Part shown: positions 4,792-59,200 of the stretch, piece after piece | Numbering within the stretch: position 1 is the stretch's first letter | Layout: each line of letters opens with the position of its first letter | NCBI GenBank assembly: GCA_045660265.1 | Contig: JAZRDM010000017.1 | Location: 7,221 to 71,220 of the forward strand | DNA length: 64,000 nt | Origin: Candidatus Scatosoma sp. | GTDB lineage: Bacteria > Bacillota > Clostridia > Christensenellales > Borkfalkiaceae | Reading direction: 5' to 3' | Position numbers and translations under genes: made by a program | The notes under the pieces: generated by a model | Seen by the model: the letters and a program-made list of their open reading frames with translations, nothing else | The model's database searches: none | Told to the model about the DNA's origin: nothing

Positions 4792-4794
4792 ATT

Positions 4795-4871: not shown

Positions 4872-4903
4872 TTGCTAAACCGCACTCAAAACAGTGCTTG
4901 TAT

Positions 4904-5536: not shown

Positions 5537-5647
5537 ATGATGAAAAATTATGAAACCCTTAAGATGACTGTGATTATGTTCGAAGAAACGGACATGATCC
5601 GCACGTCAACCGAAGACAATATCGGGGAAGAAGGAGATTGGGAGTAA
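5537..5647 (+). CDS. Small acidic peptide ORF (36 aa; start ATG 5537 or 5540) immediately upstream of the giant gene
   Basis: GGAGG at 5529-5533. MMKNYETLKMTVIMFEETDMIRTSTEDNIGEEGDWE. TAA at 5645-5647 is 5 nt before the ATG at 5653. A paralogous ORF lies at 62577-62693. Confidence 0.5.
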   Translation: MMKNYETLKMTVIMFEETDMIRTSTEDNIGEEGDWE

Positions 5648-5652
5648 AGGCT

Positions 5653-42759: not shown

Positions 42760-44426
42760 CGGATTTGAATTTTTTAAGCGTAGGGAGAGCGTTTCCCCCG
42801 ATTGAAGAGGCAAAGCGAATTGCCGAGTGTACAGAAAATGAACTTTTATTTGAAGGGAATAGTCACGCTGCCGAAACAAAACACTTTCGGGAAACATTAA
42901 GCAATCTCAACAAGCTCGCTTTAAAGATGGGCTGGACCGAAAGCTATTTGGCCGTGGAGTTAAACTTTTTTAAGTTCATGTCAAAAAAGACGATGGACTT
43001 TGTTTGCGGTGAATATCCCGATATAACGGTAAGTGGTGATGATCTCAAGAGCAAAGGAAAGAATCCCAAGCAAGCGATCATCGATGAAATTCGAAAGAAT
43101 ACGCACTTTGACGAAAAGCACGGCGATACATGGACAAGGATTCCCATGTACGGCTCTTGCCCGTGGCGTATTTATCGTGACGGTGCTCGTGACACGTTCA
43201 CGCTTGTTCGACCACAAAACTTTTTTAAAATCGTTTCGCCCGAAGATCCTTACAAGGTTACGCAGTACGTCATTACCAATCTTACGTACGACGAAAAGAT
43301 AAAGAAGGTAATACTCACGGCGCAAATTCACGAGAAAGGGAAGTACACCACGCGTCAGTTTTATTGCAAGGCATTTAGCGGTTTCCCCGCGGGGAAGATA
43401 AATGGGTTGCGATACGTGCAACAAGCTATGTATAATAGTGAGAAATCAAATATTTACACGCTCATTCTTGATAAACTCACGGACGAGATATTTCGCTGGG
43501 CTCCCGTGGTGATTGAAAAGGAGATCACGCAAGATTCTCGACCTATCAACACAGGGTTGGACGATTTTGCAATCATCGAGATCAGCAACATCAAGAAGTC
43601 GGATGGAATTTATTCTGCTTGCGATTACGCCGATGTGGAAAGCATCGTGGCAGCACAACAAAGAGTGTTGACCGAAGTGCAGTTGATATTCGATAAATAC
43701 ACGGTGCCGACGGGTTACGGTGATTTAGGAATGGTGTCAGAAGGTGAGGAAGCTGGGGAGAATTTCTTTGAAATCGGTAAATTCTACGGTATCCCGCAAG
43801 GCGGCATGGTGCCCGGCTTTGTTCAGCCTGATATATCGAGACTCGAAGTGTATTTCCGCAAACTGGAGTATCTCGATAAGCAATTACAAATCCTTTCGGA
43901 GTTTGGCGGTGTTATGTCGGCCGGTGTTGTGCCGAGCGGTGTTGCGGTTGATACGATGAAATCGATGTACACGTCGGAGTTGAAGAAAGCGGAACGCTTG
44001 ACGACGAGGAATACGGAGAATGTGAAAAAGCTGTTCAGCCTTTTGTCGAAGTCTTACGGACAGTTTATTTCCTCGGACGAGATCAGCGTAACGTGGTATG
44101 ACGGGCTTCCCAACAGCGAGCAGGCGGATATCACGATTTCGGAAATGAAACTTCGAAACAACTTGACAAGCTGCCGCGAAGAGCTGAGAACTCGATATAA
44201 CAAGACGGAAGACGAGATCGACGGAATTATGGAAGAGATCCGTCAAGAGAAATCGGATTTTTCGACATATAACGCAATGAGTGGCTTCGGCGGCTTTGCT
44301 GGGTTTGGAGGCTTTGGAAACGGCGGTGAGCATATTCCGTTGAAGCGTTCGGAGAGTGAAGAAGACGATCAAGAGTCCGAAGCGGTAGAAGGCGGTGAGG
44401 TAGATGCCGAAGAAGGACAAGTATGA
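42756..44426 (+). CDS. Portal protein
   Basis: 556 aa. ATGA overlap with the terminase gene, acidic C-terminus, followed by a MuF-type gene. Assigned by position and size only. Confidence 0.6.
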   Translation: MTDLNFLSVGRAFPPIEEAKRIAECTENELLFEGNSHAAETKHFRETLSNLNKLALKMGWTESYLAVELNFFKFMSKKTMDFVCGEYPDITVSGDDLKSKGKNPKQAIIDEIRKNTHFDEKHGDTWTRIPMYGSCPWRIYRDGARDTFTLVRPQNFFKIVSPEDPYKVTQYVITNLTYDEKIKKVILTAQIHEKGKYTTRQFYCKAFSGFPAGKINGLRYVQQAMYNSEKSNIYTLILDKLTDEIFRWAPVVIEKEITQDSRPINTGLDDFAIIEISNIKKSDGIYSACDYADVESIVAAQQRVLTEVQLIFDKYTVPTGYGDLGMVSEGEEAGENFFEIGKFYGIPQGGMVPGFVQPDISRLEVYFRKLEYLDKQLQILSEFGGVMSAGVVPSGVAVDTMKSMYTSELKKAERLTTRNTENVKKLFSLLSKSYGQFISSDEISVTWYDGLPNSEQADITISEMKLRNNLTSCREELRTRYNKTEDEIDGIMEEIRQEKSDFSTYNAMSGFGGFAGFGGFGNGGEHIPLKRSESEEDDQESEAVEGGEVDAEEGQV

Positions 44427-45993
44427 CGAAGAAGTCGAGCGAATGCTCCACAAAGTTTTAGGGCGATATCATGATATCTTATTCCAAGCGGCGAACACTA
44501 AAAAGGACGAAGACGTCAACGGATTTAGAGAACGTTTCATAAAAGAGATGCAAGATGGCGTAATGGGGTTTAAAATTGCCGCAAAAGACGTCGTCGATAA
44601 ATATATCCCGAATCTTTCTTCTGTCGGTTTTTCGACTGTTTCTTCAAGTCCTTTGGAACGTTCATCAAAGAACCCTACGGTCGATCCTTCGCGTATAACA
44701 AAAATGCTGCAATCCTTTGGCGCAAATTATAGCGGCGAGGAAATAAAACTCACTACATACGTACGAATGGTCGGCTCTTTGACGACAAGTGTGGATAAAT
44801 ACCGTGAACGCATTGACAACGAAATCAAACGGCGTGAAAGTCAAGGTAAAGTTACGACGATCATGGACTTGCAGGATATGATAATGCGAGACCTTAAAGG
44901 CGATGATATCACGTCGGTAAAGTATGAGAACGGTACGCAGATGCCCGTGGATAAATACGCGGCGATGCTCGCTCGTACTACCCGGGCGGAGACGGAAAAC
45001 CTTTCGATGATCCAACAAGCTTTGCGTGAAGGTATTGATCTTGTAGAATGCGACGAGATCTCGCCTACCTGCGATACCTGTGCCGTTTATCAAGGACGGA
45101 TATACAGCATATCGGGGAAAGATAGCCGTTATCCTGCGTTGTACCAAACGGCATTTAAATCGGGATATTCGATTATTCATCCGAACTGTCGGCATTCGTG
45201 GTTTCCCTATCACGCCGAACTTTATAGCGATGCGGAAAAACGGGAGGCGTTGGATAGGTCAAACCGTTCTTGGCGCACCGACACGGGCGGAAGGCATTTT
45301 CAGCAAACGGAAATTCAAAGAGCGGAATTTGCACGCGGTCAACAACTAATGCGGCAATGGAACTCCGAGCTTGTCGAGTACGAGCGGATGCGTCAACATT
45401 ATGAAGAGCGAAAGGAAGAGCCTCCGTATAAATCACTCGGCGCGTTTAGGCGTGAAGCGCGTAAGCCTATTGAAAAACAGTCGGCTATAATGCGGCAATG
45501 GAAAAATCATAATGGAGATGAAAAGGAATACGAAATTATTAAGAGCTTATTGGGCAAAGAAGCACCGGAAACGCTTGATAAATTCTTAAAAATAAAGTAT
45601 AATAAAGAAGAACAAAAAACGTATAATGTAATGCGTACGGCTGTTTCTGATGATCGAATAAGAAGAAGGCTTGGGAGTGAGAGCTATCCTTTGAGTGTGC
45701 AAACCGATAAACAAGGTAAACACATTCGAGGACATAGGACTTTCATGGCGAATAAAAGCTATTTGGCTGTTGAATCGGTGGAAGAGGGGCAAGCCTTTGC
45801 GGATTATCTTATAAGAAAATATAGTGGTACGGGTAGGCTTGTAAGAGATAAAAACGGTAAATGGACACATAAAGAAATTATTCTTGCGGACGAAATCGTT
45901 GGATTCGTTAAAAACCCTGATGGAGAATGGCAACCGACAAATAAAGCGTGTATTTGTTATGCAAAGGATGGAACCCACATTATACCACATTAA
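44404..45993 (+). CDS. MuF/SPP1-gp7-like head morphogenesis protein fused to a C-terminal polymorphic-toxin domain (type-50-like)
   Basis: MuF core ...RTTRAETEN...CDTCAVYQGRIYS...IIHPNCRHSW. Linker ...PETLDKFLKIKYN... C-terminal DKQGKHIRGHRTF...KSYL...GTGRLV...KEII..EIVGF......T....ICYAKDGTHIIPH. Confidence 0.7.
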   Translation: MPKKDKYDEEVERMLHKVLGRYHDILFQAANTKKDEDVNGFRERFIKEMQDGVMGFKIAAKDVVDKYIPNLSSVGFSTVSSSPLERSSKNPTVDPSRITKMLQSFGANYSGEEIKLTTYVRMVGSLTTSVDKYRERIDNEIKRRESQGKVTTIMDLQDMIMRDLKGDDITSVKYENGTQMPVDKYAAMLARTTRAETENLSMIQQALREGIDLVECDEISPTCDTCAVYQGRIYSISGKDSRYPALYQTAFKSGYSIIHPNCRHSWFPYHAELYSDAEKREALDRSNRSWRTDTGGRHFQQTEIQRAEFARGQQLMRQWNSELVEYERMRQHYEERKEEPPYKSLGAFRREARKPIEKQSAIMRQWKNHNGDEKEYEIIKSLLGKEAPETLDKFLKIKYNKEEQKTYNVMRTAVSDDRIRRRLGSESYPLSVQTDKQGKHIRGHRTFMANKSYLAVESVEEGQAFADYLIRKYSGTGRLVRDKNGKWTHKEIILADEIVGFVKNPDGEWQPTNKACICYAKDGTHIIPH

Positions 45994-46004
45994 AGAGGAG
46001 AAAT

Positions 46005-46214
46005 ATGACAGAACAAGAACTTGAACGATATTTATATAAAAATGTTCGTATTCGGTGTACAGATGGGACTGTGCTGGAGGGATATGTTTTTTATTTCGCC
46101 GATTCAGAAGATAACGAGCCAGAAGAAGCAGGGATTATTCTTTCAGAGAACAAATATTTTAAGCGTGATGTTGAAGTTGCGTTGAGTTCCATTAAAACAA
46201 TTGAAATTATTTAA
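46005..46214 (+). CDS. Candidate immunity protein for the MuF toxin (69 aa)
   Basis: GAGGAG then ATG at 46005, 11 nt after the toxin stop. Small acidic protein. Assigned by position only. Confidence 0.45.
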   Translation: MTEQELERYLYKNVRIRCTDGTVLEGYVFYFADSEDNEPEEAGIILSENKYFKRDVEVALSSIKTIEII

Positions 46215-46222
46215 AAAGCATT

Positions 46223-46238
46223 TTGCAATTGACTGCAA
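46223..46238. repeat. TTGCA-N6-TGCAA motif, copy 4 (TTGCAATTGACTGCAA), at the top of a terminator-like hairpin
   Basis: AAAAAGCATTTTGCA-ATTGAC-TGCAAAGTGCTTTTTT at 46215-46250. Confidence 0.7.
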
Positions 46239-46328
46239 AGTGCTTTTTTCATATCTAAAAAGAAAGAACTAAAAAAAGAAATGAAATTAAATAACAAGGA
46301 GGAGTAAAGGGTGGATTACGGATAATGT

Positions 46329-46344
46329 TTGCATTCAAATGCAA
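46329..46344. repeat. TTGCA-N6-TGCAA motif, copy 5 (TTGCATTCAAATGCAA)
   Basis: Intergenic, followed by a second hairpin AAGGACAACG-TTTCGG-CGTTGTTCTT plus a T-run at about 46362-46392. Confidence 0.6.
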
Positions 46345-46484
46345 AATATAAGGTAGGCAATTAAGGACAACGTTTCGGCGTTGTTCTTTTATTTATGCAA
46401 AATGCGGCTACGGCGATATGTGGCAAACATAAAAAATCTCGGAGCGGAGCGAACCGTGACGAAAAAGTGTAAGGAGAAATTTTT

Positions 46485-47042
46485 ATGAAAAGAGAAGACT
46501 TAAAAGCAAAAGGTTATACGGATGAACAAATCGACCACATTCTTGACGAATTCCACAAAGAGCAGGAAGGCTTGAAAGGGCAAATCCAAACGCTCACGAC
46601 GGAAAGGGATGCGGCAAGAGGCGAGGTCGCGAAATATAAGCAGGGCGGAGAGCTTTATCAGGATCCTACGGAGCTTGAAACCTTGCGTAAGTTCAAAACG
46701 GATACTGAAGCTGAAAAGGAAAAGGCAACCAAGGACAAGGCGTTTGACGCCATGCTTGAAAATCTTAAAGTAAAAAGCGATATGAGACCGCTGATCAAGA
46801 GAAATCTTGATTATAGCAAACTTGTCTTAACGGATAAGGGAGAAGTATCACCCGATTACGAGAAGGGATTTTCGGACGAACTCAAAGCTGTTTGCCCGAC
46901 AGCTTTCGACGTACCGCCCAACGGCACTGGTATCGGTTATGGTAATAGTACGCCCGGTACGAATGCAAACGGTAGCGGAAAAGTCGCGCCGCCCACTATT
47001 TCAGAGTGGAACGCGGCTATCGCGGCAAAAACAAAAAGTTAA
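46485..47042 (+). CDS. Scaffolding protein (GP20-like)
   Basis: MKREDLKAKGYTDEQIDHILDEFHKE and a coiled-coil middle. Directly upstream of the capsid gene. Confidence 0.65.
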   Translation: MKREDLKAKGYTDEQIDHILDEFHKEQEGLKGQIQTLTTERDAARGEVAKYKQGGELYQDPTELETLRKFKTDTEAEKEKATKDKAFDAMLENLKVKSDMRPLIKRNLDYSKLVLTDKGEVSPDYEKGFSDELKAVCPTAFDVPPNGTGIGYGNSTPGTNANGSGKVAPPTISEWNAAIAAKTKS

Positions 47043-47061
47043 AGAATAGGAGAAAAGAATT

Positions 47062-48042
47062 ATGTTGACTTTGGCAGAATACAAAGTAGGGTTAAGAGAT
47101 CATATCGATCAGCTTGTCGTAGACGAATTCCGTAGGAACTCGGAACTTCTCGATATGTTGCTGTTCGATGATGCGGTAGCGGCGAACGGTAGCGGTTCGA
47201 CGCTCGTGTATGGGTATAATCGTTTGCTTACGCCTTCGGGCGCGGCATCAAGAGCTATTAACGGCGATTATGCAGCAAGCGATGCAAAGCGCAAGGAAGA
47301 TTTTACGCATCTCGTTATCATGGGCGGTTTGTTTGACATCGACCGTGTTATCGCGAAGACGTCTGGTCAAAACGATGAAGTACAGTTTCAGTTAAAAGAT
47401 AAGATTCGCGCGACGGCAAACTATTTCCATTATCTCGCGTTAAACGGCGTAGAGAAGAAAGATGAAGCGACGGGCTCTTATACGGAGTTTAACGGGCTTT
47501 CGAAGTTGCTGACGGGCGCATCGACGGAATTGCCGTCGGAGGTTGATCTGGCTACTTGGGGTGATGACGACAAGAAGACGGCGTTTGCTTTGATCGATGA
47601 GATTGAAGATATGCTGTCTGCGATGCTCGCCAAGCCGAATGCATTGTTGATGAACAGACAAATGCTTGTCAAATTGAAATCGGCAGCTCGCCGCGCAGGT
47701 TATCTCGAACGTACGGAAAGCGCATTTGGTACGCCTATCGATACGTACAACGGCATCAAGATGTTGGACGTAGGCGAATACTACGATCCGACGACGCAAA
47801 CGTCCAAGCTGGCTATTCCTACGGTAGCAGGCAAGACGGACATCTTTGCGGTAAATACTGATCGAGACGGTTTTATCGGCGTATCGTGTCAAGGCGGCGC
47901 ATCGCTTATTGAAAGCAGACTTCCCGATTTCAGCCGTCCCGAAGCGGTACAAAAGGGCTCGGTCGAAATGCTTGCGTCGGTGGCGCTCAAAAACACTAAG
48001 AAGGCGGCCGTTCTTCGTGGTATCACGATCTCGGCTACTTAA
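47062..48042 (+). CDS. Major capsid protein
   Basis: 326 aa, follows the scaffold gene, and is followed by an attenuator-like hairpin. Assigned by position and size. Confidence 0.65.
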   Translation: MLTLAEYKVGLRDHIDQLVVDEFRRNSELLDMLLFDDAVAANGSGSTLVYGYNRLLTPSGAASRAINGDYAASDAKRKEDFTHLVIMGGLFDIDRVIAKTSGQNDEVQFQLKDKIRATANYFHYLALNGVEKKDEATGSYTEFNGLSKLLTGASTELPSEVDLATWGDDDKKTAFALIDEIEDMLSAMLAKPNALLMNRQMLVKLKSAARRAGYLERTESAFGTPIDTYNGIKMLDVGEYYDPTTQTSKLAIPTVAGKTDIFAVNTDRDGFIGVSCQGGASLIESRLPDFSRPEAVQKGSVEMLASVALKNTKKAAVLRGITISAT

Positions 48043-48055
48043 AGAACAACGGAAT

Positions 48056-48084
48056 AAAGGCGGCGGATATCCGTCGCCTTTATA
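48056..48084 (+). terminator. Hairpin after the capsid gene (weak U-tract, probably a partial terminator)
   Basis: AAAGGCGGCGG-ATAT-CCGTCGCCTTT. Confidence 0.45.
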
Positions 48085-48100
48085 ATCAAAGGAGAGTAAT

Positions 48101-48568
48101 ATGCTTGTAGTAGGAGAAAACACCTATATCACAATATTCGAAGCGGACGCGTTGATTGCTCAACGGCTTGACCGGTACAATGAATTGAGATTGTTTTGGG
48201 AAACGTTTTCCGATACGGAAAAAGAACAGTATCTTATCCGTGCAGTCGAACAAATGGAAAACGTTATGTATCCCGGGCGAAAGACTTTTCCTAACCAGCC
48301 CCTTACCTTTCCGAGATATCCGTCTTACGAAGTCCCCAAGGATATCAAACTCGCGCAAGCGTATAATGCGCTTGGATTTCTCAATAAAGACATTAAGGCG
48401 GCGTCGGAAGGAAGTAAATCGGTATACGCTCAAATGGGTGTTGTTTTTGGCGCGTCAAACGGGCTTAATTCGGGCGAAACGAGCTTGTCCAAGGAAGAGC
48501 TCTACGCGAGCGAGAAAACGGCTGAAATTATGAAAAGACACCGCCGTGGTGGTTTTCGAATGAGATAG
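48101..48568 (+). CDS. Head-tail connector/adaptor protein
   Basis: YITIFEADALIAQRL......W......EKEQYLIRAVEQME...YPGRK...QPLTFPR pattern typical of gp6/DnaT-like adaptors. Confidence 0.5.
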   Translation: MLVVGENTYITIFEADALIAQRLDRYNELRLFWETFSDTEKEQYLIRAVEQMENVMYPGRKTFPNQPLTFPRYPSYEVPKDIKLAQAYNALGFLNKDIKAASEGSKSVYAQMGVVFGASNGLNSGETSLSKEELYASEKTAEIMKRHRRGGFRMR

Positions 48569-48578
48569 GAGGGGAGAG

Positions 48579-48977
48579 ATGAAGAAATATCCGATCATGA
48601 TAACCGAGACGGATCTCCAAAATAGGGGTATCCATGCGACAAGCCAAGAAAAAATGCAGCAGCTGTTGTACTATACGCATTTATGCTTTTACGATTTTAT
48701 CGTTTATACGTCGATGAAAACCAACCGAAAGCGGTTGATCGAGATGTATAAGGACGAACTGGAAGAAGATATCAAAGAAATTCTTTGCACGATTGCTTGG
48801 GGCGTCGATCGTAACGGCGATTTTGTCGGGCTCGACAACGGTCAACTGCGCCGAGCGGACGAGGGGATCGAGATCAAACCGTTGTCGGAACGCTTGATCT
48901 CGGTGGTGCCGACGGTCGTTTGGAGTCAAATCGCAGGGCTTGAGCCGAATATAATCTTTTCGGGCGGTGAGATCTAA
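48579..48977 (+). CDS. Hypothetical head/tail-joining protein
   Basis: Position in the connector block only. Confidence 0.4.
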   Translation: MKKYPIMITETDLQNRGIHATSQEKMQQLLYYTHLCFYDFIVYTSMKTNRKRLIEMYKDELEEDIKEILCTIAWGVDRNGDFVGLDNGQLRRADEGIEIKPLSERLISVVPTVVWSQIAGLEPNIIFSGGEI

Positions 48978-49276
48978 TGAAATACAAACAATGTCAAATA
49001 TTCCGCGGCGTAGATCGTAAGATCGTATTCGCTACGGTGGATATAGAAACGAGTTCGCCGTTGACCGTTTATTCTGGTTTTGAAAACGACGGATTTCGAG
49101 AAATGAAGCAAATGACGGCGAACGTCTCAGAGACGGATGTTTTTCTCGACGGTACGGGAAATAACATGATTGTCCCGAACGTTGGGGAATTTAAGATAAC
49201 GGCGATTTTGCGAAAGCAAGTAAATGCGGGGGATTTTAAAGCGAAGTACAGATATACTTTAACATTGGAGGGGTAA
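48977..49276 (+). CDS. Hypothetical head/tail-joining protein
   Basis: Start overlaps the upstream stop. Assigned by position only. Confidence 0.4.
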   Translation: MKYKQCQIFRGVDRKIVFATVDIETSSPLTVYSGFENDGFREMKQMTANVSETDVFLDGTGNNMIVPNVGEFKITAILRKQVNAGDFKAKYRYTLTLEG

Positions 49277-49277
49277 G

Positions 49278-49607
49278 ATGGATGATGAAGATATGAGCGT
49301 GGAACTTCACGCTTACGTGACCGACCTTGTGCGGATAATTAAAAAGAATTCCCCGAAGCGTGACGACGATTCGTATCCGCACGTTATCAAGAAGAACGGC
49401 ATCATCATATCGCCTTTCCCCGGCAATCTTAAAAAGAACGGTAATCAAATTGTGGATAACGGTGAAGGCTATCAGTTAAAGCACGGCTACGAGCCCGCGC
49501 GATATGCGTTAGACGCAAACAGACATAGCCGAAAGCCGCAGTATATAGAAAAGTCTATCGGCGAATTTGCGGCGCTGATGGAACGACTTGGATGGGAGCA
49601 AGTGTAA
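49278..49607 (+). CDS. Hypothetical head/tail-joining protein
   Basis: Position only. Confidence 0.4.
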   Translation: MDDEDMSVELHAYVTDLVRIIKKNSPKRDDDSYPHVIKKNGIIISPFPGNLKKNGNQIVDNGEGYQLKHGYEPARYALDANRHSRKPQYIEKSIGEFAALMERLGWEQV

Positions 49608-49608
49608 T

Positions 49609-50526
49609 ATGGCAATCGAGAAGCAAGTTTTTAATATGCGTTTTAAAAACGAGGAGAAATATATCAACGGGAAAAGCATCGCAAAGCTGTTGCAGGCAAT
49701 ACTCAACGCGGCGCACGGCAGCCCTGAGTTTTACGTGGCGTATCAGAAAGATACCGCGACCGATAAACCTGCCAAGTACGGCGGTGTACTCTCTTGCGAG
49801 ATCGAGCCTTTTTCCTTGCGCGGTACGCTTGCACAAACCATCAACATCGATTATAAGTGTAAAGTATCAACGCAGAACGAGGCGGAACACGCCACCGTCA
49901 ATAAAACGTTAGAGAATATTCTCGGTCCGATCGACGGTACGTTTGACGTATCGGAAGATGGTACTACGGTGCGGTATTCTTTTTGGAGTAATTTCCGATA
50001 CGCAAAACCTTTTACGCCGGGGGAACTCGACGGGGCTGCCTATTATACGACGTACAATATCAAAGGATATATGCACGTTATCCGCGAAGGCGGAGCACGG
50101 CTGTCTAACGAGGTTAAATCGTATATCAAGCTCGACGGCGTTAAATACGAGGTTGCGCTGCGGCGCGGTAGCACAGGCGTAGCGTTCAACGTGTCGAATC
50201 CGTTAAAGGCAAACTGTTTCTTGGCGGCAACGGAGTATATCTCCGCAGGATACGCGAAGTCAATGGCTATACTTTATAAGGATGATATCGTTTGCGGTCT
50301 GTTGCGTGATTTTTGCGAGCACGTTGACGGGCAGAATGGCGGTCCGTTCTTTAATCAAGAAACGGGGAAACCCGAGATCGTCATCGTGGAAGAATACCCC
50401 GACCGCGATATCGAAACTACGTACTATATCGTACAGCTGACGTGCGAGAGAGAAAGCGGCGCGTACATGGCGTTTAATCTTTCTTTGATGCATCGCGAGG
50501 AAACGGTTATCACCTACGACGAGTAA
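49609..50526 (+). CDS. Putative major tail/tube protein
   Basis: ATG at 49609 (the track starts at 49588). 305 aa, first large gene after the connector block. Assigned by position only. Confidence 0.35.
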   Translation: MAIEKQVFNMRFKNEEKYINGKSIAKLLQAILNAAHGSPEFYVAYQKDTATDKPAKYGGVLSCEIEPFSLRGTLAQTINIDYKCKVSTQNEAEHATVNKTLENILGPIDGTFDVSEDGTTVRYSFWSNFRYAKPFTPGELDGAAYYTTYNIKGYMHVIREGGARLSNEVKSYIKLDGVKYEVALRRGSTGVAFNVSNPLKANCFLAATEYISAGYAKSMAILYKDDIVCGLLRDFCEHVDGQNGGPFFNQETGKPEIVIVEEYPDRDIETTYYIVQLTCERESGAYMAFNLSLMHREETVITYDE

Positions 50527-50537
50527 AGGAGAATACT

Positions 50538-51011
50538 ATGGAAATAACAGGCGCAACGTTTAATTTTACAAAGACCGTAAACGGTGGCTCGGGCGGTGGT
50601 GGTAGCGGAAACAGAGCTACGCCCGAACATCCTGTTGACGAAGGTTCGGGAAAACCTGCGTTTCCCGGCGATAATATGCCAGAAGAGCCTGACTTAAAAG
50701 GCGCGTTTGTATTCGATACGATTAAAAAAGGCGTGCAGAATACGATGTCGGCTTTGTTATCCAACGTGTCGGGCTCGCCTACGTTGCAAGTACAATTACA
50801 AGCGGCGCAAAAAATTGGTGGTAAAATTATTGCGTACGGGGCGGCGGCGTTAACGCAAAACTGGGTAGCTTTGACGACGATGGTCATTGCCGATTTGACG
50901 ACCGCCTTTTTCGACAACGCAAATTTGACGCGTGATAAGGCTTGGGCGACGTACAGTCAAGAGCAGTACGCGGAACGGCGTGGATATTCGACGGCAAGAA
51001 ATCGAAAATGA
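50538..51011 (+). CDS. Hypothetical structural protein with Gly-rich N-terminus and hydrophobic segment
   Basis: GGSGGGGSG and IIAYGAAALTQNWVALTTMVIADL. Function unknown. Confidence 0.4.
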   Translation: MEITGATFNFTKTVNGGSGGGGSGNRATPEHPVDEGSGKPAFPGDNMPEEPDLKGAFVFDTIKKGVQNTMSALLSNVSGSPTLQVQLQAAQKIGGKIIAYGAAALTQNWVALTTMVIADLTTAFFDNANLTRDKAWATYSQEQYAERRGYSTARNRK

Positions 51012-51067
51012 GTCGCTTATTTGTACAAAAAGAATATAAAAAGCATATTATTTTTGTTGAAAACTAC

Positions 51068-51096
51068 TTGACAGGTGTTAATATGTTTGATAAAAT
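51068..51096 (+). promoter_or_regulatory. Promoter of the inserted cassette (TTGACA-17-TAAAAT with extended -10 TG)
   Basis: TTGACA at 51068-51073, TGA at 51088-51090, TAAAAT at 51091-51096. Confidence 0.6.
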
Positions 51097-51103
51097 AATA
51101 TTA

Positions 51104-51164
51104 TAATCTTGGTTATAGCCTAGCTATAGATAATACAAAAGAAGAATATTAATCTTGGATATAG
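51104..51164 (+). repeat. Two 15-bp direct repeats TAATCTTGG(T/A)TATAG (51104-51118 and 51150-51164) downstream of the cassette promoter
   Basis: 14 of 15 positions identical, 46-bp spacing, in the 5' leader of the cassette. Candidate operator. Confidence 0.5.
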
Positions 51165-51225
51165 TAGTAATATTGATGAGATTTTATATAATAATTTAAA
51201 GGAAGTTTTATAGTTCTATAAAACA

Positions 51226-51516
51226 ATGGAAAAATATATGGCCATTGGAACAGAAGCGAGAAAGGTTTTAGAAAGGAATTTAAAATTGAATATAAGACAA
51301 ATGGGTATGCCCGCTTTTGCTGAGAATGCACATATTCAATCTATTACAGGAAAAACTGTTTCATATTCGAAAGATTTTGACGCCAGAGTAATGGCGAGAG
51401 GTAATGCATTATTGTCGTTATCTCGTGGTGATACGGAAGAGGAAATTAACGCAAAAATCGATGTTGCGATTAGAAAGAGAAATGACGATCGAAGAAAGAG
51501 TAAAAAGAATATCTGA
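51226..51516 (+). CDS. Small protein with basic C-terminal tail (96 aa; alternative start at Met5)
   Basis: MEKYMAIGTEARKVLERNLKLNIRQMGMPAFAENAHIQSITGKTVSY...RKRNDDRRKSKKNI. Weak RBS. No family recognised. Confidence 0.45.
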   Translation: MEKYMAIGTEARKVLERNLKLNIRQMGMPAFAENAHIQSITGKTVSYSKDFDARVMARGNALLSLSRGDTEEEINAKIDVAIRKRNDDRRKSKKNI

Positions 51517-52114
51517 TGATTATTTAAAAATTGTATGCCCGATGGTTATGCAATATGAAATTTTAACGAACCAATTCCCTCTTGCAATATTAAATGAAAT
51601 TCGTGATATATTTACGCATTTAGCAAAGTATTATACTGAGGATGATGAAAAAACGAAATCGATTGAAATTTCCAGAGCGGAAGGTCATGCAATAAGAGCA
51701 AAACGCGATGCTTATAAATTTGTTTGTATTGCGTTTGAAGATAAATATAGTAGCTTTATGAAGAGTTGCGAGAATGTGGATTTATCTTTAATTAGTGATG
51801 GTAAATTTTTGCCAAAGTTATTATCTTTGCATGATGAAGCTATTGACTTTTTGGAAAAAGCAAGACATCTTGAGTTAAAGACAACACCAGAAGATTTTTC
51901 GTTAGATTGTGCGATTTATGAGACGTATGATGCTGCGTACGTAAAATATAACGAATTAAATGATTTCATAAAAAGCATGAATTCTGTTATTGAAACAATG
52001 AAAGGAAGAATTGCAAAAAAAATCAAGAAAGAAAAACTGTATGAGATTTTAACTTGGGTTTTTGGTGTAGCCACCATAGTAAGTACTGTATTGGCTGTGA
52101 TTGCGATACTTTAA
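51482..52114 (+). CDS. Tail-anchored all-helical protein with an RDIFTH (Rx4H) motif (210 aa)
   Basis: ATG at 51482 overlaps the upstream gene by 35 nt (the track starts at 51404). The C-terminal 25 aa LYEILTWVFGVATIVSTVLAVIAIL are hydrophobic. No family recognised. Confidence 0.55.
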   Translation: MTIEERVKRISDDYLKIVCPMVMQYEILTNQFPLAILNEIRDIFTHLAKYYTEDDEKTKSIEISRAEGHAIRAKRDAYKFVCIAFEDKYSSFMKSCENVDLSLISDGKFLPKLLSLHDEAIDFLEKARHLELKTTPEDFSLDCAIYETYDAAYVKYNELNDFIKSMNSVIETMKGRIAKKIKKEKLYEILTWVFGVATIVSTVLAVIAIL

Positions 52115-52115
52115 G

Positions 52116-52146
52116 AAAAAAAACGACGAGTTTCGTCGTTTTTTTA
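52116..52146 (+). terminator. Rho-independent terminator of the cassette
   Basis: A-run, ACGACG-AGTTT-CGTCGT, then TTTTTTT. Confidence 0.75.
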
Positions 52147-52154
52147 ATAAGTTT

Positions 52155-52170
52155 TTGTAATTGACTGCAA
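52155..52170. repeat. TTGCA-N6-TGCAA motif, copy 6 (TTGTAATTGACTGCAA)
   Basis: Differs from copy 4 at one position. Lies between the cassette terminator and the next RBS. Confidence 0.6.
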
Positions 52171-52184
52171 AAAGGGGGCGTTGT

Positions 52185-52628
52185 ATGCGGAAGTTTTTAT
52201 CTGGCGGATTGATTTTATTCAGTGCGCTTGCGGCGATATTAGGCGTGGCGATTTTTGCGTATTATTTATTAGTGGGGGAAGGAACTTTGGACTTCCCTGC
52301 AACATCGGACTTGTTTTCCCCGGTCTTTTATCGTTTGCTTGGGGTGTTGTTGACGGGGCTTTTGCTAATCATTTTTTCTGCGATAACGGTTAAGACGAAA
52401 AGAGGCGCAGGATTATCCATTATATTCTCTTTATTGGCAATTGCAGCCGGCGCAGTTAACGTATTAACAACGCGATTTAATTACGGAAGCGGTTGGTGGG
52501 AAGAGTTTATGTTGGGATTAATGCCTAATGGCCCTTGGGGGACTTTGATTTTTGCGGGGCTTTCCTTAATTGCATTGATATTCTTGATTTGCCTTGCGGC
52601 ATACAATGCCAACTGTGACGAAGAATAA
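52185..52628 (+). CDS. Four-TM membrane protein (147 aa)
   Basis: AAGGGGG then ATG at 52185. Four long hydrophobic helices. Its own terminator follows. Confidence 0.55.
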   Translation: MRKFLSGGLILFSALAAILGVAIFAYYLLVGEGTLDFPATSDLFSPVFYRLLGVLLTGLLLIIFSAITVKTKRGAGLSIIFSLLAIAAGAVNVLTTRFNYGSGWWEEFMLGLMPNGPWGTLIFAGLSLIALIFLICLAAYNANCDEE

Positions 52629-52645
52629 AAAAGAACTAAAAGAGT

Positions 52646-52670
52646 AAGGACGACGGGAGTCGTCCTTTTT
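52646..52670 (+). terminator. Rho-independent terminator
   Basis: AAGGACGAC-GGGA-GTCGTCCTT followed by TTT. Confidence 0.7.
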
Positions 52671-52684
52671 CATTGGAGAAAAAA

Positions 52685-55600
52685 ATGAAAAATAAAATAA
52701 AATCGGTCGTTATCGAATTTTCCAATGGGACCGAAGTCCCCGTAACAAAGCATTTGAATATGCCGTTTACGTGGGAATCGGCTTTGGATGAAACGCACGG
52801 CACGGCAAAAATGGTCCTTACGGAAATGAGGCAGCAAACGTTTGATAAGTATAACGTAAGGATAGACGAAGCCCTGAAAGTGAATACGCCCATAGAAATC
52901 ACTTTTGACGGGCAAGAAACGGTGATCCGCATGATCATAGCAAAAGATACGGCGGAGATGGTCAGAAAGGATAATTTCGCCACGTGGAGTCATACTCTCG
53001 AATTGGTTGACGAAACGAAGCGTTTGGAATTAGAGCCTGTTGATAATTTGACCTTTACGAATCCTATTCCGCGCGGTTTGTTCAGTGATAACGTTATCGT
53101 ATGGAATACGGAAATCAGCGCAAGTAACGGTTTGCCTGATAGTCCTGAAAACAGTTGGGTGCCGGGTACGTTCAAACAAATACAAGTCGTTGGCTCTACG
53201 ATTTCTTTTAACGATAATTTAAATTTATTTTCGTATAATGAAAATACGGCGATAGTTTCTTTTAATTTAAAAATTGTCGCGCCTAACGGGGCGGTGCAGG
53301 AAGAAATCTCGCCGCTTTCTATATCAAATAACGCTTACACAAATACCGAATACGCAATTCGTCTTAATCAAATAGGTACTCATTCTATCGTGATCTCTTT
53401 GAGTTATTTATGGAAAAAAACTCAGAGTGGAACAATATCATCCATCACCATTACCAAGACAGCCACATTCACGGTCGCGGAAGCGGACGACGCGCCTACG
53501 CCGTACACGATCAAGGACGTGATCGACAGAATATTGTCTGTAACGCCGACGAGAACGAAGAACGGCGAGAATAAATATACGTTCTACAACGACGCAGCGG
53601 AATACGCGACGGAAGAATCGCCCGAGTTTTCGTTTACGGGTAAGCATCTGTTTGAAGTAATGCTCGATATCGCAAGCTATAAAAAGATGTTTCCTGCGTT
53701 GCATAAAAACGAGGTATATTTCCGTCCGTTTAATACGGGTGTGTATTGGTCGGAAGACGAGCTCCCCGTTTGTACAAAGGCGATACAATGTAGCACGATC
53801 GACCAGCACTGCAACAATCTGGATAGTTATGTGGAGAACTTGGTTTGTCTTAACGATACGAGGGTGGGGACGGTCGTTGAGCCGTACGCCAGTGGTTACA
53901 TAACGCCGAGAGCGAAGGAAGGATTTGAGATTTCCGAAACGACGGCCATGGTCCCCACACAGTCGGGGATATATCAATCGGTCAAGTTGGAGATGGGCGA
54001 AGTCGTAGGAAAGCTCGTTGGGGATATCGAGAAGTATATTTATGAGAGCGAAGACTACGACTCGCTTGGAAACAGAGACGCATCCTATCCGTACAACAAG
54101 GCATACGCGCTTAAATATATCCGCCAAGCAAAAAATTATACCGAGCTTGGACACCGTATCATTTTGGATAATGATATCGAGGCGCTTTTAGCTCGTCCTT
54201 CGATTGCGAATATCGTTGAGGATATGGCAGGAGAGAGCGTTGGTGAAACGTTATGGACGTGGATCGGCGCAGATAAATCGGCACCGTTTGCCGATTTGTT
54301 GTTCCGCCCGACTTATATCCCGTCCGTGAATGCGAGAGTGCGGCAGTATAAGCCGATGTTCTCGTTCGAAGAAGAAAACGCGACGCTGTTTTATAATCAG
54401 CAGTCGGATCTTGTAGATAGCGAAGCGTTCGGTGAGCATTTAAAAGGATTCATTCAAAAGCTTGGTAACCACACGGAGATCCGCGTATATACCTTCGGGC
54501 GAATTGACGACGTGCCGAAGGTGGGGGATTTGGTCGGCGAAAAAAGCGTTTATAACGTGGCTATGACGATTTACGAAGACCACGTTGACGTAACGCTTTG
54601 TTTGGTCGATTATGCCGAATTATCTAAGTATATCGGCGTGAAAAATCAAATTAAAACGAGTGATATATCCATCTCCAAATGGAGTCAGCGATATATTAAC
54701 TGGGAAGAATTTTTTGTATTCACTCATAACGAAGATTATATCGGCACGGCGCTTTCGGTAACGCCCGAAGCGATGAAAGGGCTTATTGATTTTACAAACC
54801 AAAAGGCGAGCCCTTTGACCTGCGCGATGATCACCAACTACACAGAAAAGGGGAACGTGATCAACGAGATATTTGCGCCTATCAAGCATCTGGCAATCGG
54901 GAATAGTATTTATTTTCAATTCGAGATGTTGGATAATTTTGCGGCTGGGTATCAATCGGAAGAAGCTCCACTCGGAGCAACGAGTGCGTTAACGGGAACG
55001 AAATATAATCGTGCGCAATGCGCTGTTCGGTATTGTGATTCGTACGGTCGAACGGAAACGGTGGATTTTAAACTGTTGAAAGATGGGCCAAATTATGAAA
55101 ATTCAACGTATGCACTACCGAGTACGGTCAATTCTTATATAAAAGATAATGATGGAATTTACATTGTTTTTTATGAAGCTGTCGAAGTTTATCAGTATAT
55201 CCAAGTAATATTGGCAACAGAAACAACGGATGCAGGTACGGTTGAGTGGGTAGAAAATACTATTGCTGAACCGGGTGTAAACCAAGTTAAAATCCCTATA
55301 GTCTTGAACTTTGGTGGCACAATTTCGTCTAAGAACACTAAAATCGTTGCGATAGTAAGCCAGGTATGTCTTGACGAGGAAAAACATAAAGGGCAATATA
55401 TGAGATCGCTGGCGTATGCTTATCCAGAAAAACCGAGCTGGCTGAAACTCAAAGAGGGGATGAATTCGCCTGTGTTCAAAATATACGACCTGCTCGTTAA
55501 AAAGAACTCGTCGGAAGCGTTGAAGTATGCAGCGCAATATCATTTCCGCCAAGAGCATAAAAACTTTGTGCTCGGCAGCGGTATGTCGAATTTCTGTTCG

Positions 55601-56233
55601 CTTGTCGGCGGTTCGTGTCAAGCGTTACACTTGTTTATCGCCAACGTACCGATCAATCGTTTTGAACGGCATATAAAGCTGGACGATACAAGTAAGTACA
55701 TCGTCTTAGATGCTTTGCCTACCTTTGCCGTCAATGAGAATAAAGAGCGCATAGAGATTACATTGCCTGCAAGCGTGAACGGTTATTATGAAACGTTAGG
55801 CAAAACAAGCGAGGAATACAAAAAGACGTGCCGTAGCTGGGGGCTTGTCGGCATGGACCGATACGGAAATTATCAACTGATTTTCGGTGAAAACCGTGAC
55901 GGCGTGAACGAGTTTGACGAAATGCTGTATCTTGTGCCGATAGCTAAGATTAACGAGCTTAAACAAAAAGCTACTTATACTTTGACATGTGAAAGCTCGA
56001 ATGCATCGCATAGTTTGTACGTTGATGGGTTGCTTGTTGTTTTTGAGAACAATGCAACTGAAATTCCTCGCAATGCGGTTGTGACCGTTGAAAATACACA
56101 TATCCGTTCTTTTAAATTTACGTTGGATGGCGTTACGCAATCAATAGGGGCGGGAAGATCGATTACATTTACGATGAGTAAAGATATGACGTATAAGGTC
56201 TACGATGGTTATAATGGGCCAGTTATTATGTAA
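52685..56233 (+). CDS. Large tail/baseplate protein (1,182 aa)
   Basis: GGAG then ATG at 52685. Size and position upstream of the fibre gene. No enzymatic motif recognised by eye. Confidence 0.5.
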   Translation: MKNKIKSVVIEFSNGTEVPVTKHLNMPFTWESALDETHGTAKMVLTEMRQQTFDKYNVRIDEALKVNTPIEITFDGQETVIRMIIAKDTAEMVRKDNFATWSHTLELVDETKRLELEPVDNLTFTNPIPRGLFSDNVIVWNTEISASNGLPDSPENSWVPGTFKQIQVVGSTISFNDNLNLFSYNENTAIVSFNLKIVAPNGAVQEEISPLSISNNAYTNTEYAIRLNQIGTHSIVISLSYLWKKTQSGTISSITITKTATFTVAEADDAPTPYTIKDVIDRILSVTPTRTKNGENKYTFYNDAAEYATEESPEFSFTGKHLFEVMLDIASYKKMFPALHKNEVYFRPFNTGVYWSEDELPVCTKAIQCSTIDQHCNNLDSYVENLVCLNDTRVGTVVEPYASGYITPRAKEGFEISETTAMVPTQSGIYQSVKLEMGEVVGKLVGDIEKYIYESEDYDSLGNRDASYPYNKAYALKYIRQAKNYTELGHRIILDNDIEALLARPSIANIVEDMAGESVGETLWTWIGADKSAPFADLLFRPTYIPSVNARVRQYKPMFSFEEENATLFYNQQSDLVDSEAFGEHLKGFIQKLGNHTEIRVYTFGRIDDVPKVGDLVGEKSVYNVAMTIYEDHVDVTLCLVDYAELSKYIGVKNQIKTSDISISKWSQRYINWEEFFVFTHNEDYIGTALSVTPEAMKGLIDFTNQKASPLTCAMITNYTEKGNVINEIFAPIKHLAIGNSIYFQFEMLDNFAAGYQSEEAPLGATSALTGTKYNRAQCAVRYCDSYGRTETVDFKLLKDGPNYENSTYALPSTVNSYIKDNDGIYIVFYEAVEVYQYIQVILATETTDAGTVEWVENTIAEPGVNQVKIPIVLNFGGTISSKNTKIVAIVSQVCLDEEKHKGQYMRSLAYAYPEKPSWLKLKEGMNSPVFKIYDLLVKKNSSEALKYAAQYHFRQEHKNFVLGSGMSNFCSLVGGSCQALHLFIANVPINRFERHIKLDDTSKYIVLDALPTFAVNENKERIEITLPASVNGYYETLGKTSEEYKKTCRSWGLVGMDRYGNYQLIFGENRDGVNEFDEMLYLVPIAKINELKQKATYTLTCESSNASHSLYVDGLLVVFENNATEIPRNAVVTVENTHIRSFKFTLDGVTQSIGAGRSITFTMSKDMTYKVYDGYNGPVIM

Positions 56234-56245
56234 GGAGAAAATCTT

Positions 56246-59200
56246 ATGAAGGAAAATATCATTAGGGCAATTTTATATCAAGATCAGTCGGTTAAGTGGA
56301 AGGTAGCCGGCGACGAGCTGAAGGACAGCGTCAACATCCATTTAAACGTGCATCAAAAAGCAAGACAATTCGTCGAGGTTGAACTCGGCGATTTTATTTT
56401 ATCCGACGGTGAGGCAGTGCTTGTTGCGTTTGAAAAGACAATCGACGGGGAGGTTAACCACATCAATCCGACGTGGATGCGGCCGATTGACGATGATGCA
56501 AATGCGTTTCGTTTGCAAATTCCTACGCTCGTGCACAACACGCCGGGGGAATGGGGTATCCAGTTTTTTATTGCAGTTGACTACAATACGATAACGGGCG
56601 AATATACCGACATTTATCCTTTCGATAAAGCAAAGTTTAGCGAGTATTCTTCGTTTATCGACGACGGCTTGACTGTTCCGTCGAGCGAGAATTTGTCTGC
56701 ACTCTACGAACAGGTTGTTGCCGAGAGAGAAGAAGCTAAAGAGCAAGCGCTCAATGCCGGCAATGCAGCGGATAATGCGCAAGCGAGCGCCACGCAGTCG
56801 GCGGAAATTCTGCAAGAAGTTAAAGCTCATACGTCAGCCTTGTATAGATACAAAGGCTCGTTGAAAAATTACGAGGATTTGCCTACATTGGAGACGGCTG
56901 ATATTCAAGTCGGAGATACTTATAATGTGGAAAACGCCTATAAAGATTATCCCGAAGGTACAAATTTTGCGTGGAACGGGGAAACTTGGGATGCGCTTGC
57001 AGGGACGATCAATGTCGAAAATATGGCAAGTGAGAGTATTTTTACAATCAATGCAGAGACAAGTGTAGAATACAATTTTTTTGGTAAAATTGCAAACTTG
57101 AAAAAAGATTGGGGTGACGGTACGGTTGACTATTTGCCTAATCATACTTATAGTTTAAGTGGTAAATATTTGATTAAAGTGTATGGATTATCGTGTATTG
57201 ACCTCGATGAATTTGACAGCGATGGAATTGTATCAGATATAGGTAAATCATTATTAGAGATTTATCTGTCCAATAATATAAGATTTATCGATAATTCTGC
57301 TTTTGCGATTTGTCCTGTTTTGAAAAGTATATATACGGGTGGGGCTAGATATATCGGGAGAGATGCTTTTTGTTATTGTGATAGATTAAATAAGGTAGTA
57401 TTTGGTGAATCGTTGCAACGTATTGACTCTCAGGCATTTATGGATTGCGCGAGATTGCGTACGTTAGAGTTTAAAGGGGCAACGCCTCCGACTATAGATG
57501 CGAGTGCATTTGATTACGTTACGACAATAGAAAAAGTCATTGTACCGCGTGAAAGCGTGGAGGCGTATTCGGAATTATTCAGCTTATTAGGTTTTGAGGT
57601 GAAAAATATTATCGATGCAAATGCCACGCTTGCCGACTTGACTAAATCAATCAACAGCATGGTCGAATCGCTACCGCAGGCAGATTATGAGCAAAACGAC
57701 GAAACAGCAATGGACTATATCAAAAACCGTCCTTTTTATGAAGATAGTGGGAAAGAGTTGTCTTGGGACGGTAGCACAGAAGGCAGGGATAGTTTTGATA
57801 TTGGCGAAGGTAATGTATATTACAAAATTAGCGATAATTTATTGGTAGCCGATGATTTCTCCTCGGATACTAAAATTTATTTGGCAATTGAAGGGACCGA
57901 CGCGGAAATTGGCAAATATACAATTGAAGAGACAGAATTTTCTCTTTTGGCATATACCGATCGGCCATTGGTTTTTGTGGTGAAAGATAAGGATGCGGCA
58001 AATAGAGAAATAGGTGTAGATCTGATTCAATCTAATGGGACATATTTCCTTTTGACTGACAGCGATGATGAATATATTTATACAAGTAAAATTTTAAAAT
58101 CCAGTACAGTCAAAAAAATAGACGAGAAGTTTTTGCCTGATTTCATCTCCAAAATTGTTGAAGGAAGTTTACCGCTATATTCAATTCCTTTTTGGGACGG
58201 GGAGAAATTTGTGCCGTTAGAGGCAAAAACTTATGCCGATGGTCGACAGGTATACTTTGCTGAAGATAACTTGCAGTTAGCATTACAGTCTAATATGGTA
58301 CGTCTTCGCAGATTTGCTAACGCCGATCGCAGAGAGGATTTTCGCGAAGTTAACTTATCCGCAGCCGGAGGTTTTCAATTTAATAACTCCGCGCGAAGCG
58401 TTATCTACGGTAGTGATTATGTCTCAGTAACCCCTGTACTTTCTGCAAACGCCAACGGCACATATACTTACGACTACAGCAAAACGATAAAGCTTTATTT
58501 ACCTAATCGAACAGGTACGATTGCAACTGAAGAGTATGTAAGTTCAAACTACTTGAAAAAAGGCGAAGATTTTGTCGTTGATGAAAGAAACCCCGACGTG
58601 GTTATGCCGGATGGAGAGCCAGCAGGTAAAACAGCAACTTACGGTACTGAAACTGTAATTGTTAATTGTGATGTATCCGCTAATATAAAAGAAGAAAGCA
58701 CGCTTAAAAGTGATAGATTGTCATTATATAGCGATAAGTTTAGCGGTGTGTTTAAGGTAAAAACTGAATATAGAAACGGCACGATATACCACAAGAGCGA
58801 GGATTATGGGAATAATATTGATAACTACGAATGTACGTTGCAACTGCCCAAAGAAGATGGAACGCTTGCAACTGAAGAATCAGTCAAAAAGATTTTAGAA
58901 GGTTTACCTCAAAAAGCTGGTTGGAAAATTGTCAAGTATCAATTGAATCATTCTTTCAGTTTTACAAGTTCGGGAATCAACCATTCAGGGTTTGGTAGCT
59001 TTATAGAGTACGAAAAGATCGGTGATAGTGCGAAACATATCATTACGGCAGATATCCAAGTCACTTCAAGTGAGACAACGGATTTGCCTGAATCGTACGG
59101 ATTTTTAGGGATGACAGCAACGGCGTGGAAAAGTAAGGGTATGGCAGTTAACGCTCTTTTCCCTGCAGGATTTAAAGACGCAACCAAATATACGCACATG

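Follow-up and report, generated by a model that had tools for sequence, protein, structure and literature searches.

A small-protein/tail-anchored-protein gene pair carried as low-GC cargo in a Clostridia prophage is a candidate two-gene conflict module

The window analysed here is a stretch of 64,000 nt from Candidatus Scatosoma sp. (assembly GCA_045660265.1, contig JAZRDM010000017.1, positions 7,221 to 71,220). It is a segment of bacterial chromosome, with genes for a serine dehydratase and FeoB and a 3531-aa open reading frame (ORF) at 5638-16233 in its host part, upstream of the prophage that follows. In the tail-gene region of this Clostridia prophage lies a short A+T-rich cassette of two genes, which we call A and B. 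The cassette and the DNA directly after it hold the following features, in window coordinates.

51012-52146, + strand: A+T-rich cargo cassette (putative moron), low in guanine-plus-cytosine (GC) content against flanks of ~0.48, absent at this junction from the related prophages L002-L005
51068-51096, + strand: sigma-70-like promoter TTGACA-17-TAAAAT with an extended -10 TG, predicted from consensus matches only (11/12)
51104-51164, + strand: two 15-bp direct repeats, TAATCTTGG(T/A)TATAG, in the 5' leader (TAATCTTGGTTATAG at 51104-51118 and TAATCTTGGATATAG at 51150-51164)
51226-51516, + strand: gene A, an ORF of 96 aa from 51226, or 92 aa from the likelier start ATG at 51238
51482-52114, + strand: gene B, an ORF of 210 aa with a 35-nt overlap with gene A
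52117-52145, + strand: intrinsic terminator, a predicted hairpin with a perfect 13-bp stem and a 3-nt loop, flanked by an A-run and a T-run
52155-52170, no strand assigned: palindrome copy TTGTA-N6-TGCAA, assigned to the prophage and not to the cassette
52185-52628, + strand: gene for a 147-aa membrane protein with four hydrophobic segments, an ORF with its own terminator at 52646-52667

The original prediction had described this segment as a self-contained A+T-rich insert that interrupts a block of structural genes. The change in composition was readily seen in 300-nt windows, with a GC content of 0.28–0.35 across 50950-52149, 0.47–0.50 upstream to 50950, and 0.40–0.46 downstream. The promoter with its extended -10 is present at 51068-51096 and is the joint best site within 45000-58000 (13 kb). 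Both leader repeats, the 35-nt overlap of the two ORFs, and the strong terminator after gene B were also found as described, while the palindrome behind the terminator had been read as TTGCA-N6-TGCAA and is one base off. The interruption of structural genes holds in a qualified form. The gene for the protein with four transmembrane (TM) segments separates the cassette from the tail gene, and the flanking genes match no family; they are called structural from their position after the terminase, portal, capsid, and adaptor genes and from their conservation in related prophages. The 147-aa 4-TM protein itself had no family match in Pfam, PHROGs, NCBIfam, or PADLOC.

Several features of the leader and the cassette borders were considered and set aside. 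A repeat length of 15 nt was reached in 2/60 shuffles of the 200-nt leader, which is modestly above chance, and the direct repeats are not conserved across homologous A-B loci. A family-wide operator was dropped as an explanation, given that the repeats are missing from most of these loci. The leader RNA was not unusually structured (z = +0.47 compared with shuffles), and an Rfam scan of 50900-52800 returned sub-threshold chance matches only, so the reading of the leader as a riboswitch or a type III toxin-antitoxin (TA)-like RNA was also dropped. Imperfect 19-nt inverted repeats (51024-51042 and 52141-52159, 74% complementary) bracket the cassette; as a boundary feature they are probably a product of chance in A+T-rich DNA.

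The NCBI product for gene A is 92 aa long. Because this call agrees with the N-termini of the homologues (M-x-I-G/S-x-E-A-K), gene A probably starts at 51238 (MAIGTEAR); the 96-aa ORF proposed earlier is present at 51226-51516, and it is its start that has likely moved. Members of the A family range from 73 to 96 aa. Their N-terminal half looks helical, with the pattern x-E-A-K-K-x-L-E-x-x-I-G-L-S-x-x-Q-I, and is followed by a conserved core, K-T-G-K-x-L-x-F-S ... G-R-G-N-P-L-L-A-R-R/K-R. The alignment of A shows no variation at G59 and at least 90% conservation at R58, within the consensus GRGNPLLAR(R/K)R. The basic tail of the window protein, RKRNDDRRKSKKNI, to which the original prediction drew attention, is not conserved among the homologues. 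Gene A matched no Pfam family and no recognised DNA-binding family, and in the PDB its N-terminal half had a weak helix-turn-helix-like match to a designed repeat protein only. A is probably a small soluble partner of B.

A word-indexed search with B returned only B itself and one protein with 45% identity. An exhaustive phmmer search with B against 1.84 billion cluster representatives (50% identity clusters) found 363 proteins at E<=1e-3, of which 168 were at E<=1e-10; B is therefore not an orphan. Among the 150 matches listed, almost all are 160–250 aa long, with ~200–240 aa as the typical size of the family. The source names of the relatives are all 'hypothetical protein', with the exception of P0211, which carries the JGI name 'SMC interacting uncharacterized protein involved in chromosome segregation'. 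The family has hundreds of members, hosted by gut, termite-gut, and environmental anaerobes, and the N-termini of the homologues back the start of gene B in the window.

Conservation in the B family was counted in an alignment of 80 sequences. Six residues (E39, R41, H69, R72, D76, and K79) are invariant, and N38 and H46 are each present in 79/80 members. The motifs LNEIRDIFTHL and RAEGHAIRAKRDAYKF and the hydrophobic C-terminus, to which the original prediction drew attention, are all present in the window protein. The C-terminal hydrophobic 19-mer is found in 78/80 members, with a median of 4 residues beyond it and a net +3 in the preceding 15 residues, and 76/80 have a small-xxx-small motif in the TM helix. 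The membrane association proposed for B thus extends to nearly the whole alignment, and B is predicted to be a C-tail-anchored protein with its bulk in the cytoplasm.

The layout of B is a helical bundle at residues 1-165, a basic linker, and a TM helix at ~190-210. An AlphaFold2 model of the full-length protein, built with the family alignment, has a predicted local distance difference test score (pLDDT) of 97.1 and a predicted template-modelling score of 0.86. It is all-helical, with helices at 3-29, 34-52, 56-95, 101-133, 139-165, and 167-209, in agreement with the fold class foreseen from the sequence; the soluble domain modelled alone reached a pLDDT of 96.9. By helical periodicity, N38, R41, and H46 on helix 2 and H69, R72, D76, and K79 on helix 3 each occupy one face of two adjacent antiparallel helices. 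In the model, we read this conserved polar cluster, to which E39 on helix 2 also belongs, as one site, which may be catalytic or may bind a ligand or a partner. Foldseek searches returned nothing at E<=1e-3 for the full model (against the PDB and BFVD) or for the soluble domain (against the PDB), the best matches having E values of 0.03–0.3 and template-modelling scores up to 0.47.

Sequence profiles gave a similar picture. A and B had no match in Pfam, PHROGs, NCBIfam, or PADLOC-DB v2.0.0, the last of which was searched at E<=10 with the 4-TM protein as well, and phmmer and profile searches of the PDB with B found noise only. Across the 80 family members, we observed no consistent Pfam family at E<=0.01 and no consistent PADLOC model at E<=0.1. 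The earlier statement that the cassette fits no system that can be named agrees with the lack of a match in Pfam, PHROGs, NCBIfam, PADLOC-DB v2, and the PDB.

To describe the pair outside the window, 71 further loci were gathered via 12 close B members, and others by exact-protein look-up. In this first locus set, an A homologue lies directly upstream of B and on the same strand for 79/85 B ORFs; the six without one are mostly at contig ends or are broken B genes. The pair was also found in 5/5 loci fetched later, so the two-component unit suspected from one copy recurs across the family. The 35-nt overlap does not recur as a feature of the module. In mechanical ORF calls, the spacing between A and B varies between loci, mostly from -35 to about +60 nt, and commonly the genes overlap or lie within ~15 nt. 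In all 19 of the other loci with enough sequence, the GC content of the A-B cassette is below that of its flanks, by a mean of 8 points. By these counts, A and B are two unannotated families that form an apparently obligate pair.

The prophage around the cassette is laid out as follows.

27004-28257, - strand: integrase, an annotated gene, at the start of the prophage
41002: fused terminase
42756: portal
44404: minor head protein
47062: major capsid
48101: head-tail adaptor, after which comes a run of unannotated late genes

Four related prophages (L002-L005) from Candidatus Scatosoma and other Clostridia metagenome-assembled genomes were retrieved with the upstream 312-aa protein. They keep the gene order from adaptor to tail, with proteins 50–83% identical to those of the window, and the genes that flank the cassette have 50–72% identity. 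A and B are encoded in none of the four, and the 1.1-kb insert is absent at the junction. After the homologue of the 157-aa gene, each relative has other low-GC cargo instead. In L003 and L004, a promoter, TTGACT-17-TAGAAT, stands before a gene for a 106-107-aa 2-TM protein; in L005 there are ~3.8 kb of other genes, including one with a replisome-organiser domain; and in L002 such TM proteins and an IrrE/Peptidase_M78-like gene are inserted inside the large tail gene. Since each relative carries different low-GC cargo at the junction, we regard the site as a moron slot in which the A-B cassette is one alternative occupant. Moron status, as first proposed, is supported by the cassette's own promoter and terminator, its deviant GC content, and its absence from the four relatives at this junction. 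Judged by these features, the cassette is probably a horizontally acquired, transcriptionally autonomous two-gene cargo in a variable prophage slot.

Some further observations concern the slot and its surroundings. The L002 homologue of the 1182-aa tail-region protein is split, with residues 3-140 at 3939-4352 and residues 153-1058 at 6051-8774; within this split gene (3924-8774), the intervening low-GC insert of ~1.7 kb holds the IrrE/Peptidase_M78-like protein and the TM proteins. A small low-GC membrane-protein gene lies just upstream of the large tail gene in every related prophage. These slot genes are at 52185-52667 in the window, 11479-11799 in L003, 6710-7033 in L004, and 3476-3898 and 5595-6008 in L002. 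Those of L002-L004 have their own sigma-70-like promoter and a common C-terminal KILQLNAKIEKLK segment, and the window 4-TM protein, in the same slot, has no sequence similarity to the 2-TM proteins of the relatives.

The palindrome TTG(C/T)A-N6-TGCAA has 14 strand-matches at 9 sites in the window (3833, 28331, 31980, 36859, 46223, 46329, 52155, 56571, and 62062), compared with 0.5 expected by chance. The copies at 46223 (TTGCAATTGACTGCAA) and 52155 (TTGTAATTGACTGCAA) are near-identical, and each is directly downstream of an A+T-rich small-gene insert. The palindrome may be a site for a phage regulator or part of small hairpins. In the 44404-46400 region, the minor head protein (Phage_min_cap2) has a C-terminal Ntox50 toxin domain (E = 5e-22). 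Behind it comes an A+T-rich ORF of 69 aa at 46006-46214; a promoter-like site is found at 45575-45603 and a terminator at 46363-46388. The two genes may represent a virion-borne toxin with its immunity gene.

Beyond the related prophages, annotated neighbours of the A-B pair were observed in the following loci.

L006: 1280-aa YobI-ATPase
L011-L013: AAA_15/AAA_21 ATPases or a KAP NTPase, plus SocA_Panacea+ParE
L014: Toprim/AAA_25 primase-helicase-type protein, SSB, and NYN, in a mobile-element-like region
L089: PIN_8
L090: SIR2_2 and AAA_14/DUF4143
L091: prophage early region, with a 204-aa HTH_3 protein adjoining the pair, pRha, HigB-HTH, and Gp49-HTH
L092: ABC-3C system (DUF2326, MC6/MC8, CTD12)

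Three of these loci (L011, L089, and L092) come from one Bacteroidales lineage, with B proteins 65–84% identical, and their upstream defence genes differ each time. With A-B constant and the upstream defence genes changing, the region behaves as defence islands do. Neighbours such as ParE/Panacea, HigB, Gp49, AAA_15/21, KAP, SIR2_2, ABC-3C, and YobI are in keeping with the defence or TA-like role first suggested for the pair. A bulk scan with Pfam of 150 neighbour ORFs from 36 more loci added recombinases/resolvases and IS21/IS66 elements. In L011, L089, L090, and L092, the pair also lies within or next to loci for polysaccharide biosynthesis and is co-oriented with them; these loci hold genes for glycosyltransferases, Wzy_C, epimerases, and UDP-glucose (UDPG) dehydrogenase. 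An insertion of A-B into the UDP-glucose dehydrogenase gene of L089 was considered; alignment did not confirm it, and it is not claimed.

A separate lineage places the B domain in a different protein. P0142, of 381 aa, combines DUF4062 at residues 6-91 (E = 3.7e-29) with a B-like domain at residues 233-371. Its DUF4062 part has stretches similar to the motifs of active enzymes (aromatic, Q/W/E, and SYT-E-Y), and its B-like domain keeps all the invariant residues (E, R, H, H, R, D, K). The protein has no TM helix. In three contigs, the fusion gene is followed by a 548-aa SIR2_2 gene, as a two-gene operon, and an A-like ORF is absent from all three.

L094, 209-3053: fusion and SIR2_2 operon
L095, 1158-4002: fusion and SIR2_2 operon
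L096, 195-3039: fusion and SIR2_2 operon

DUF4062 (NIR) has been shown experimentally to be a TIR-like NADase effector of anti-phage systems, in which it is joined to variable sensing regions. Described DUF4062/NIR systems are Swarozyc (10.64898/2026.05.01.722283), Evangelion (10.64898/2026.06.25.731849), and Avs variants, Vulcan, and Vesta (10.64898/2026.09.04.749371); we did not find the pairing of a NIR-B fusion with SIR2_2 described in these preprints. Because the B domain in P0142 stands in place of the sensing regions of NIR proteins, we read the helical domain of B as a sensing or regulatory module. By analogy, the B domain may be a module used for sensing or regulation in immunity, with the tail anchor and A as a possible alternative output to the NADase, a proposal drawn from one cluster of five sequences. 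The fusion, too, is in keeping with a role in defence or a TA-like role.

Our reading is that A-B forms a new two-gene conflict module, of a defence/abortive-infection or TA-like kind, with a proposed division of labour between A and B. We give this a probability of roughly 0.5, and any specific mechanistic step is rated much lower. The cassette would be transcribed from its own promoter, as suggested by consensus matches only, apart from the late operon, and transcription would end at its own terminator. B would be inserted in the membrane by its tail, with the helical domain at the inner (cytoplasmic) face, where the bundle and its polar cluster would serve as a sensing or regulatory domain. 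A would be made from the same mRNA and would bind B, and its most likely part is to keep B inactive or to convey the trigger. Once set off, for example by phage infection or when A is lost, B would exert its effect at the membrane, and the small-xxx-small motif of its TM helix suggests that it may self-associate and damage the membrane. The outcome would be cell arrest or death, or exclusion of the invader. Expression in the lysogen, binding of A to B, the direction of regulation, membrane damage, and an anti-phage or toxic phenotype are all points that we infer from sequence.

A wider claim can be built on the same material, namely, that A-B is the founding member of an undescribed, widespread two-gene anti-phage system, in which the helical domain, which has no solved structural relative, is a modular immune sensor. 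Its partner would be either the anchor with A or a NIR/DUF4062 NADase next to a SIR2 gene. We hold this version tentatively, as possible with the odds somewhat against it.

A number of observations weigh against the conflict module. Two loci (L009 and L016) have housekeeping neighbours only, and the bulk scan found mostly ordinary metabolic genes, with only 2 AbiL/Septu-like ATPase proteins. The association with conflict genes is qualitative, coming from ~8 independent annotated contexts, L009 and L016 among them, and is suggestive. By tblastn, no family member was detected in 50,697 deposited phage genomes or in 72,556 plasmids (the blastn and tblastn queries were the window proteins and the family member that scored best against the profile), and the B family turned up in only 4 IMG/VR contigs. 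The NIR-B fusion is a single cluster of 5 sequences. For an effector that disrupts membranes, a lone tail-anchor helix makes a weak candidate, and the members in polysaccharide loci could point to an envelope-related role.

The alternative that survives best, which we consider rather unlikely, is a plain type II TA addiction module, where A would be an antitoxin and autorepressor on the leader repeats and B a membrane toxin; the module would stabilise the prophage or island that carries it and have no anti-phage role. The tight coupling of a small upstream gene to a larger downstream gene would suit such a module, as would the mobility, low GC content, and patchy distribution of A-B and its frequent position next to other TA pairs. 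The two direct repeats just downstream of the window promoter and the weak helix-turn-helix-like match in the N-terminal half of A, to the designed repeat protein, could be seen as an operator and its reader, yet A is without a recognised DNA-binding family and the repeats are not conserved in homologous loci. Where the B domain is joined to a NIR NADase, no A partner is present, which is a better fit to a sensor domain than to an antitoxin-dependent toxin. Sequence alone does not separate addiction from defence.

The original prediction had also raised a hint that B is a HEPN-type RNase, which in its full form would make B a membrane-anchored toxin with R41-x4-H46 as its catalytic motif and A as its antitoxin. 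The motif is indeed conserved, with R41 in 80/80 members and H46 in 79/80, so the lack of conservation that the original prediction had named as refuting is not what the homologues show. In addition, membrane-associated HEPN proteins exist (PMC3710099), and the HEPN toxin 6m6u_H is among the weak Foldseek matches. Nevertheless, we found this reading improbable, as no consistent profile match backed the hint and the fold comparison gave weak matches only. No HEPN Pfam family was detected for window B (noise only at E<=1), and none was consistent among the 80 members at E<=0.01. HEPN-related PADLOC models matched only single members of the 80 (CARF_HEPN at E = 9e-4 and Cas13b at E = 0.046), and the PDB profile search gave no HEPN chain. 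In the Foldseek search with the soluble domain, the only HEPN entry in the top 50 was at rank 41 (E = 3, template-modelling score 0.32). The HEPN motif is located at the end of helix 3 (PMC3710099), whereas the R-x4-H of B lies mid-way in helix 2 (residues 34-52) of the six-helix model. The residue after R41 is mostly Ala (59/80), with Ser in 13/80 and Asp in 6/80, compared with the usual N, D, or H of HEPN proteins, and the further invariant residues on helix 3 (H69, R72, D76, and K79) are outside the HEPN signature. Helix positions alone leave some room for a circularly permuted HEPN arrangement in B.

Superinfection exclusion or an envelope function, with B blocking the DNA entry of other phages or modulating surface polysaccharide synthesis, strikes us as quite improbable. 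B is membrane-anchored, the slot holds small membrane-protein genes in related prophages, and several members lie within or beside polysaccharide loci (Wzy_C, glycosyltransferases, epimerases, UDPG dehydrogenase). However, three of the four polysaccharide contexts are from one Bacteroidales lineage, and B is nearly all cytoplasmic, with a median of 4 residues past the TM helix and nothing exposed outside the cell. The conserved polar cluster resembles an enzymatic or ligand-binding site, and the TM-less B domain is fused to a cytoplasmic NADase.

That A and B are ordinary phage morphogenesis proteins of odd composition (tail assembly chaperones or tape-measure-like proteins), a role for homologues that the original prediction had itself raised, is scarcely credible: they do lie between tail-region genes on the same strand, with weak Foldseek matches that include tape-measure and minor tail proteins (E 0.3–1, template-modelling score <=0.41), but they are absent from all four related prophages with flanking genes at 50–72% identity, their own promoter and strong terminator would interrupt the late operon, no phage structural family is among the 25 that neighbour ORFs matched most often in the bulk scan, and there is no PHROG match and no match in the 50,697 phage genomes.

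If the conflict module serves defence or abortive infection, bacterial immunity would gain a sensing domain and a small-partner logic that are both new, and the common domain would link tail-anchored membrane effectors with NIR NADase systems. If it is an addiction module only, it would still be a new TA family with a membrane-tethered partner and hundreds of members annotated as hypothetical. At ~1 kb, the cassette is a compact and cheaply testable candidate. The comparison also brings to light a tail-region moron slot in a group of gut Clostridia prophages, filled with different cargo in each relative.

The general kind of element, a two-gene, mobile, membrane-linked prophage moron, is familiar; the A and B proteins are not. 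Type II TA modules resemble A-B in having a small upstream and a larger downstream gene, co-directional and often overlapping, in being mobile and low in GC, and in occurring near TA pairs, but neither A nor B is in a known toxin or antitoxin family. RexAB of phage lambda is a lysogen-expressed accessory pair that brings about abortive infection by acting at the membrane, with RexB as a polytopic membrane protein. Like A-B, it is a prophage accessory element that has a promoter and terminator to itself and joins a membrane-bound component to a second one; for A-B, lysogen expression is presumed. We found no sequence relation between the two, and B differs in its single tail anchor and large cytoplasmic domain.

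Membrane-associated HEPN or HEPN-TM systems (PMC3710099) share with B a cytoplasmic all-helical domain, an R-x4-H motif, a single TM segment, and mobile or conflict contexts. B differs from them in the lack of a consistent profile match or a significant fold match, the mid-helix 2 position of the motif, the Ala after R, the extra invariant H, R, D, and K, and the C-terminal position of the TM segment. The DUF4062/NIR defence proteins are like P0142, where the B-like domain is found at the place of their variable auxiliary or sensing regions and a SIR2_2 gene comes next. They are unlike window B, which has no DUF4062, has a C-terminal membrane anchor, and is always accompanied by gene A, which is absent from the fusion. 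Finally, Tha-Ith of Staphylococcus aureus prophages is a lysogen-expressed effector with a small cognate control protein that gives abortive-like protection against other phages (PMC11087260). Tha, at 301 aa, is soluble and has a HEPN domain at its C-terminus by HHpred (PMC11087260), whereas A-B is membrane-anchored, lies in the tail region, and has no detectable HEPN similarity. The two systems are alike in their basic design, a prophage-carried larger protein paired with a small partner.

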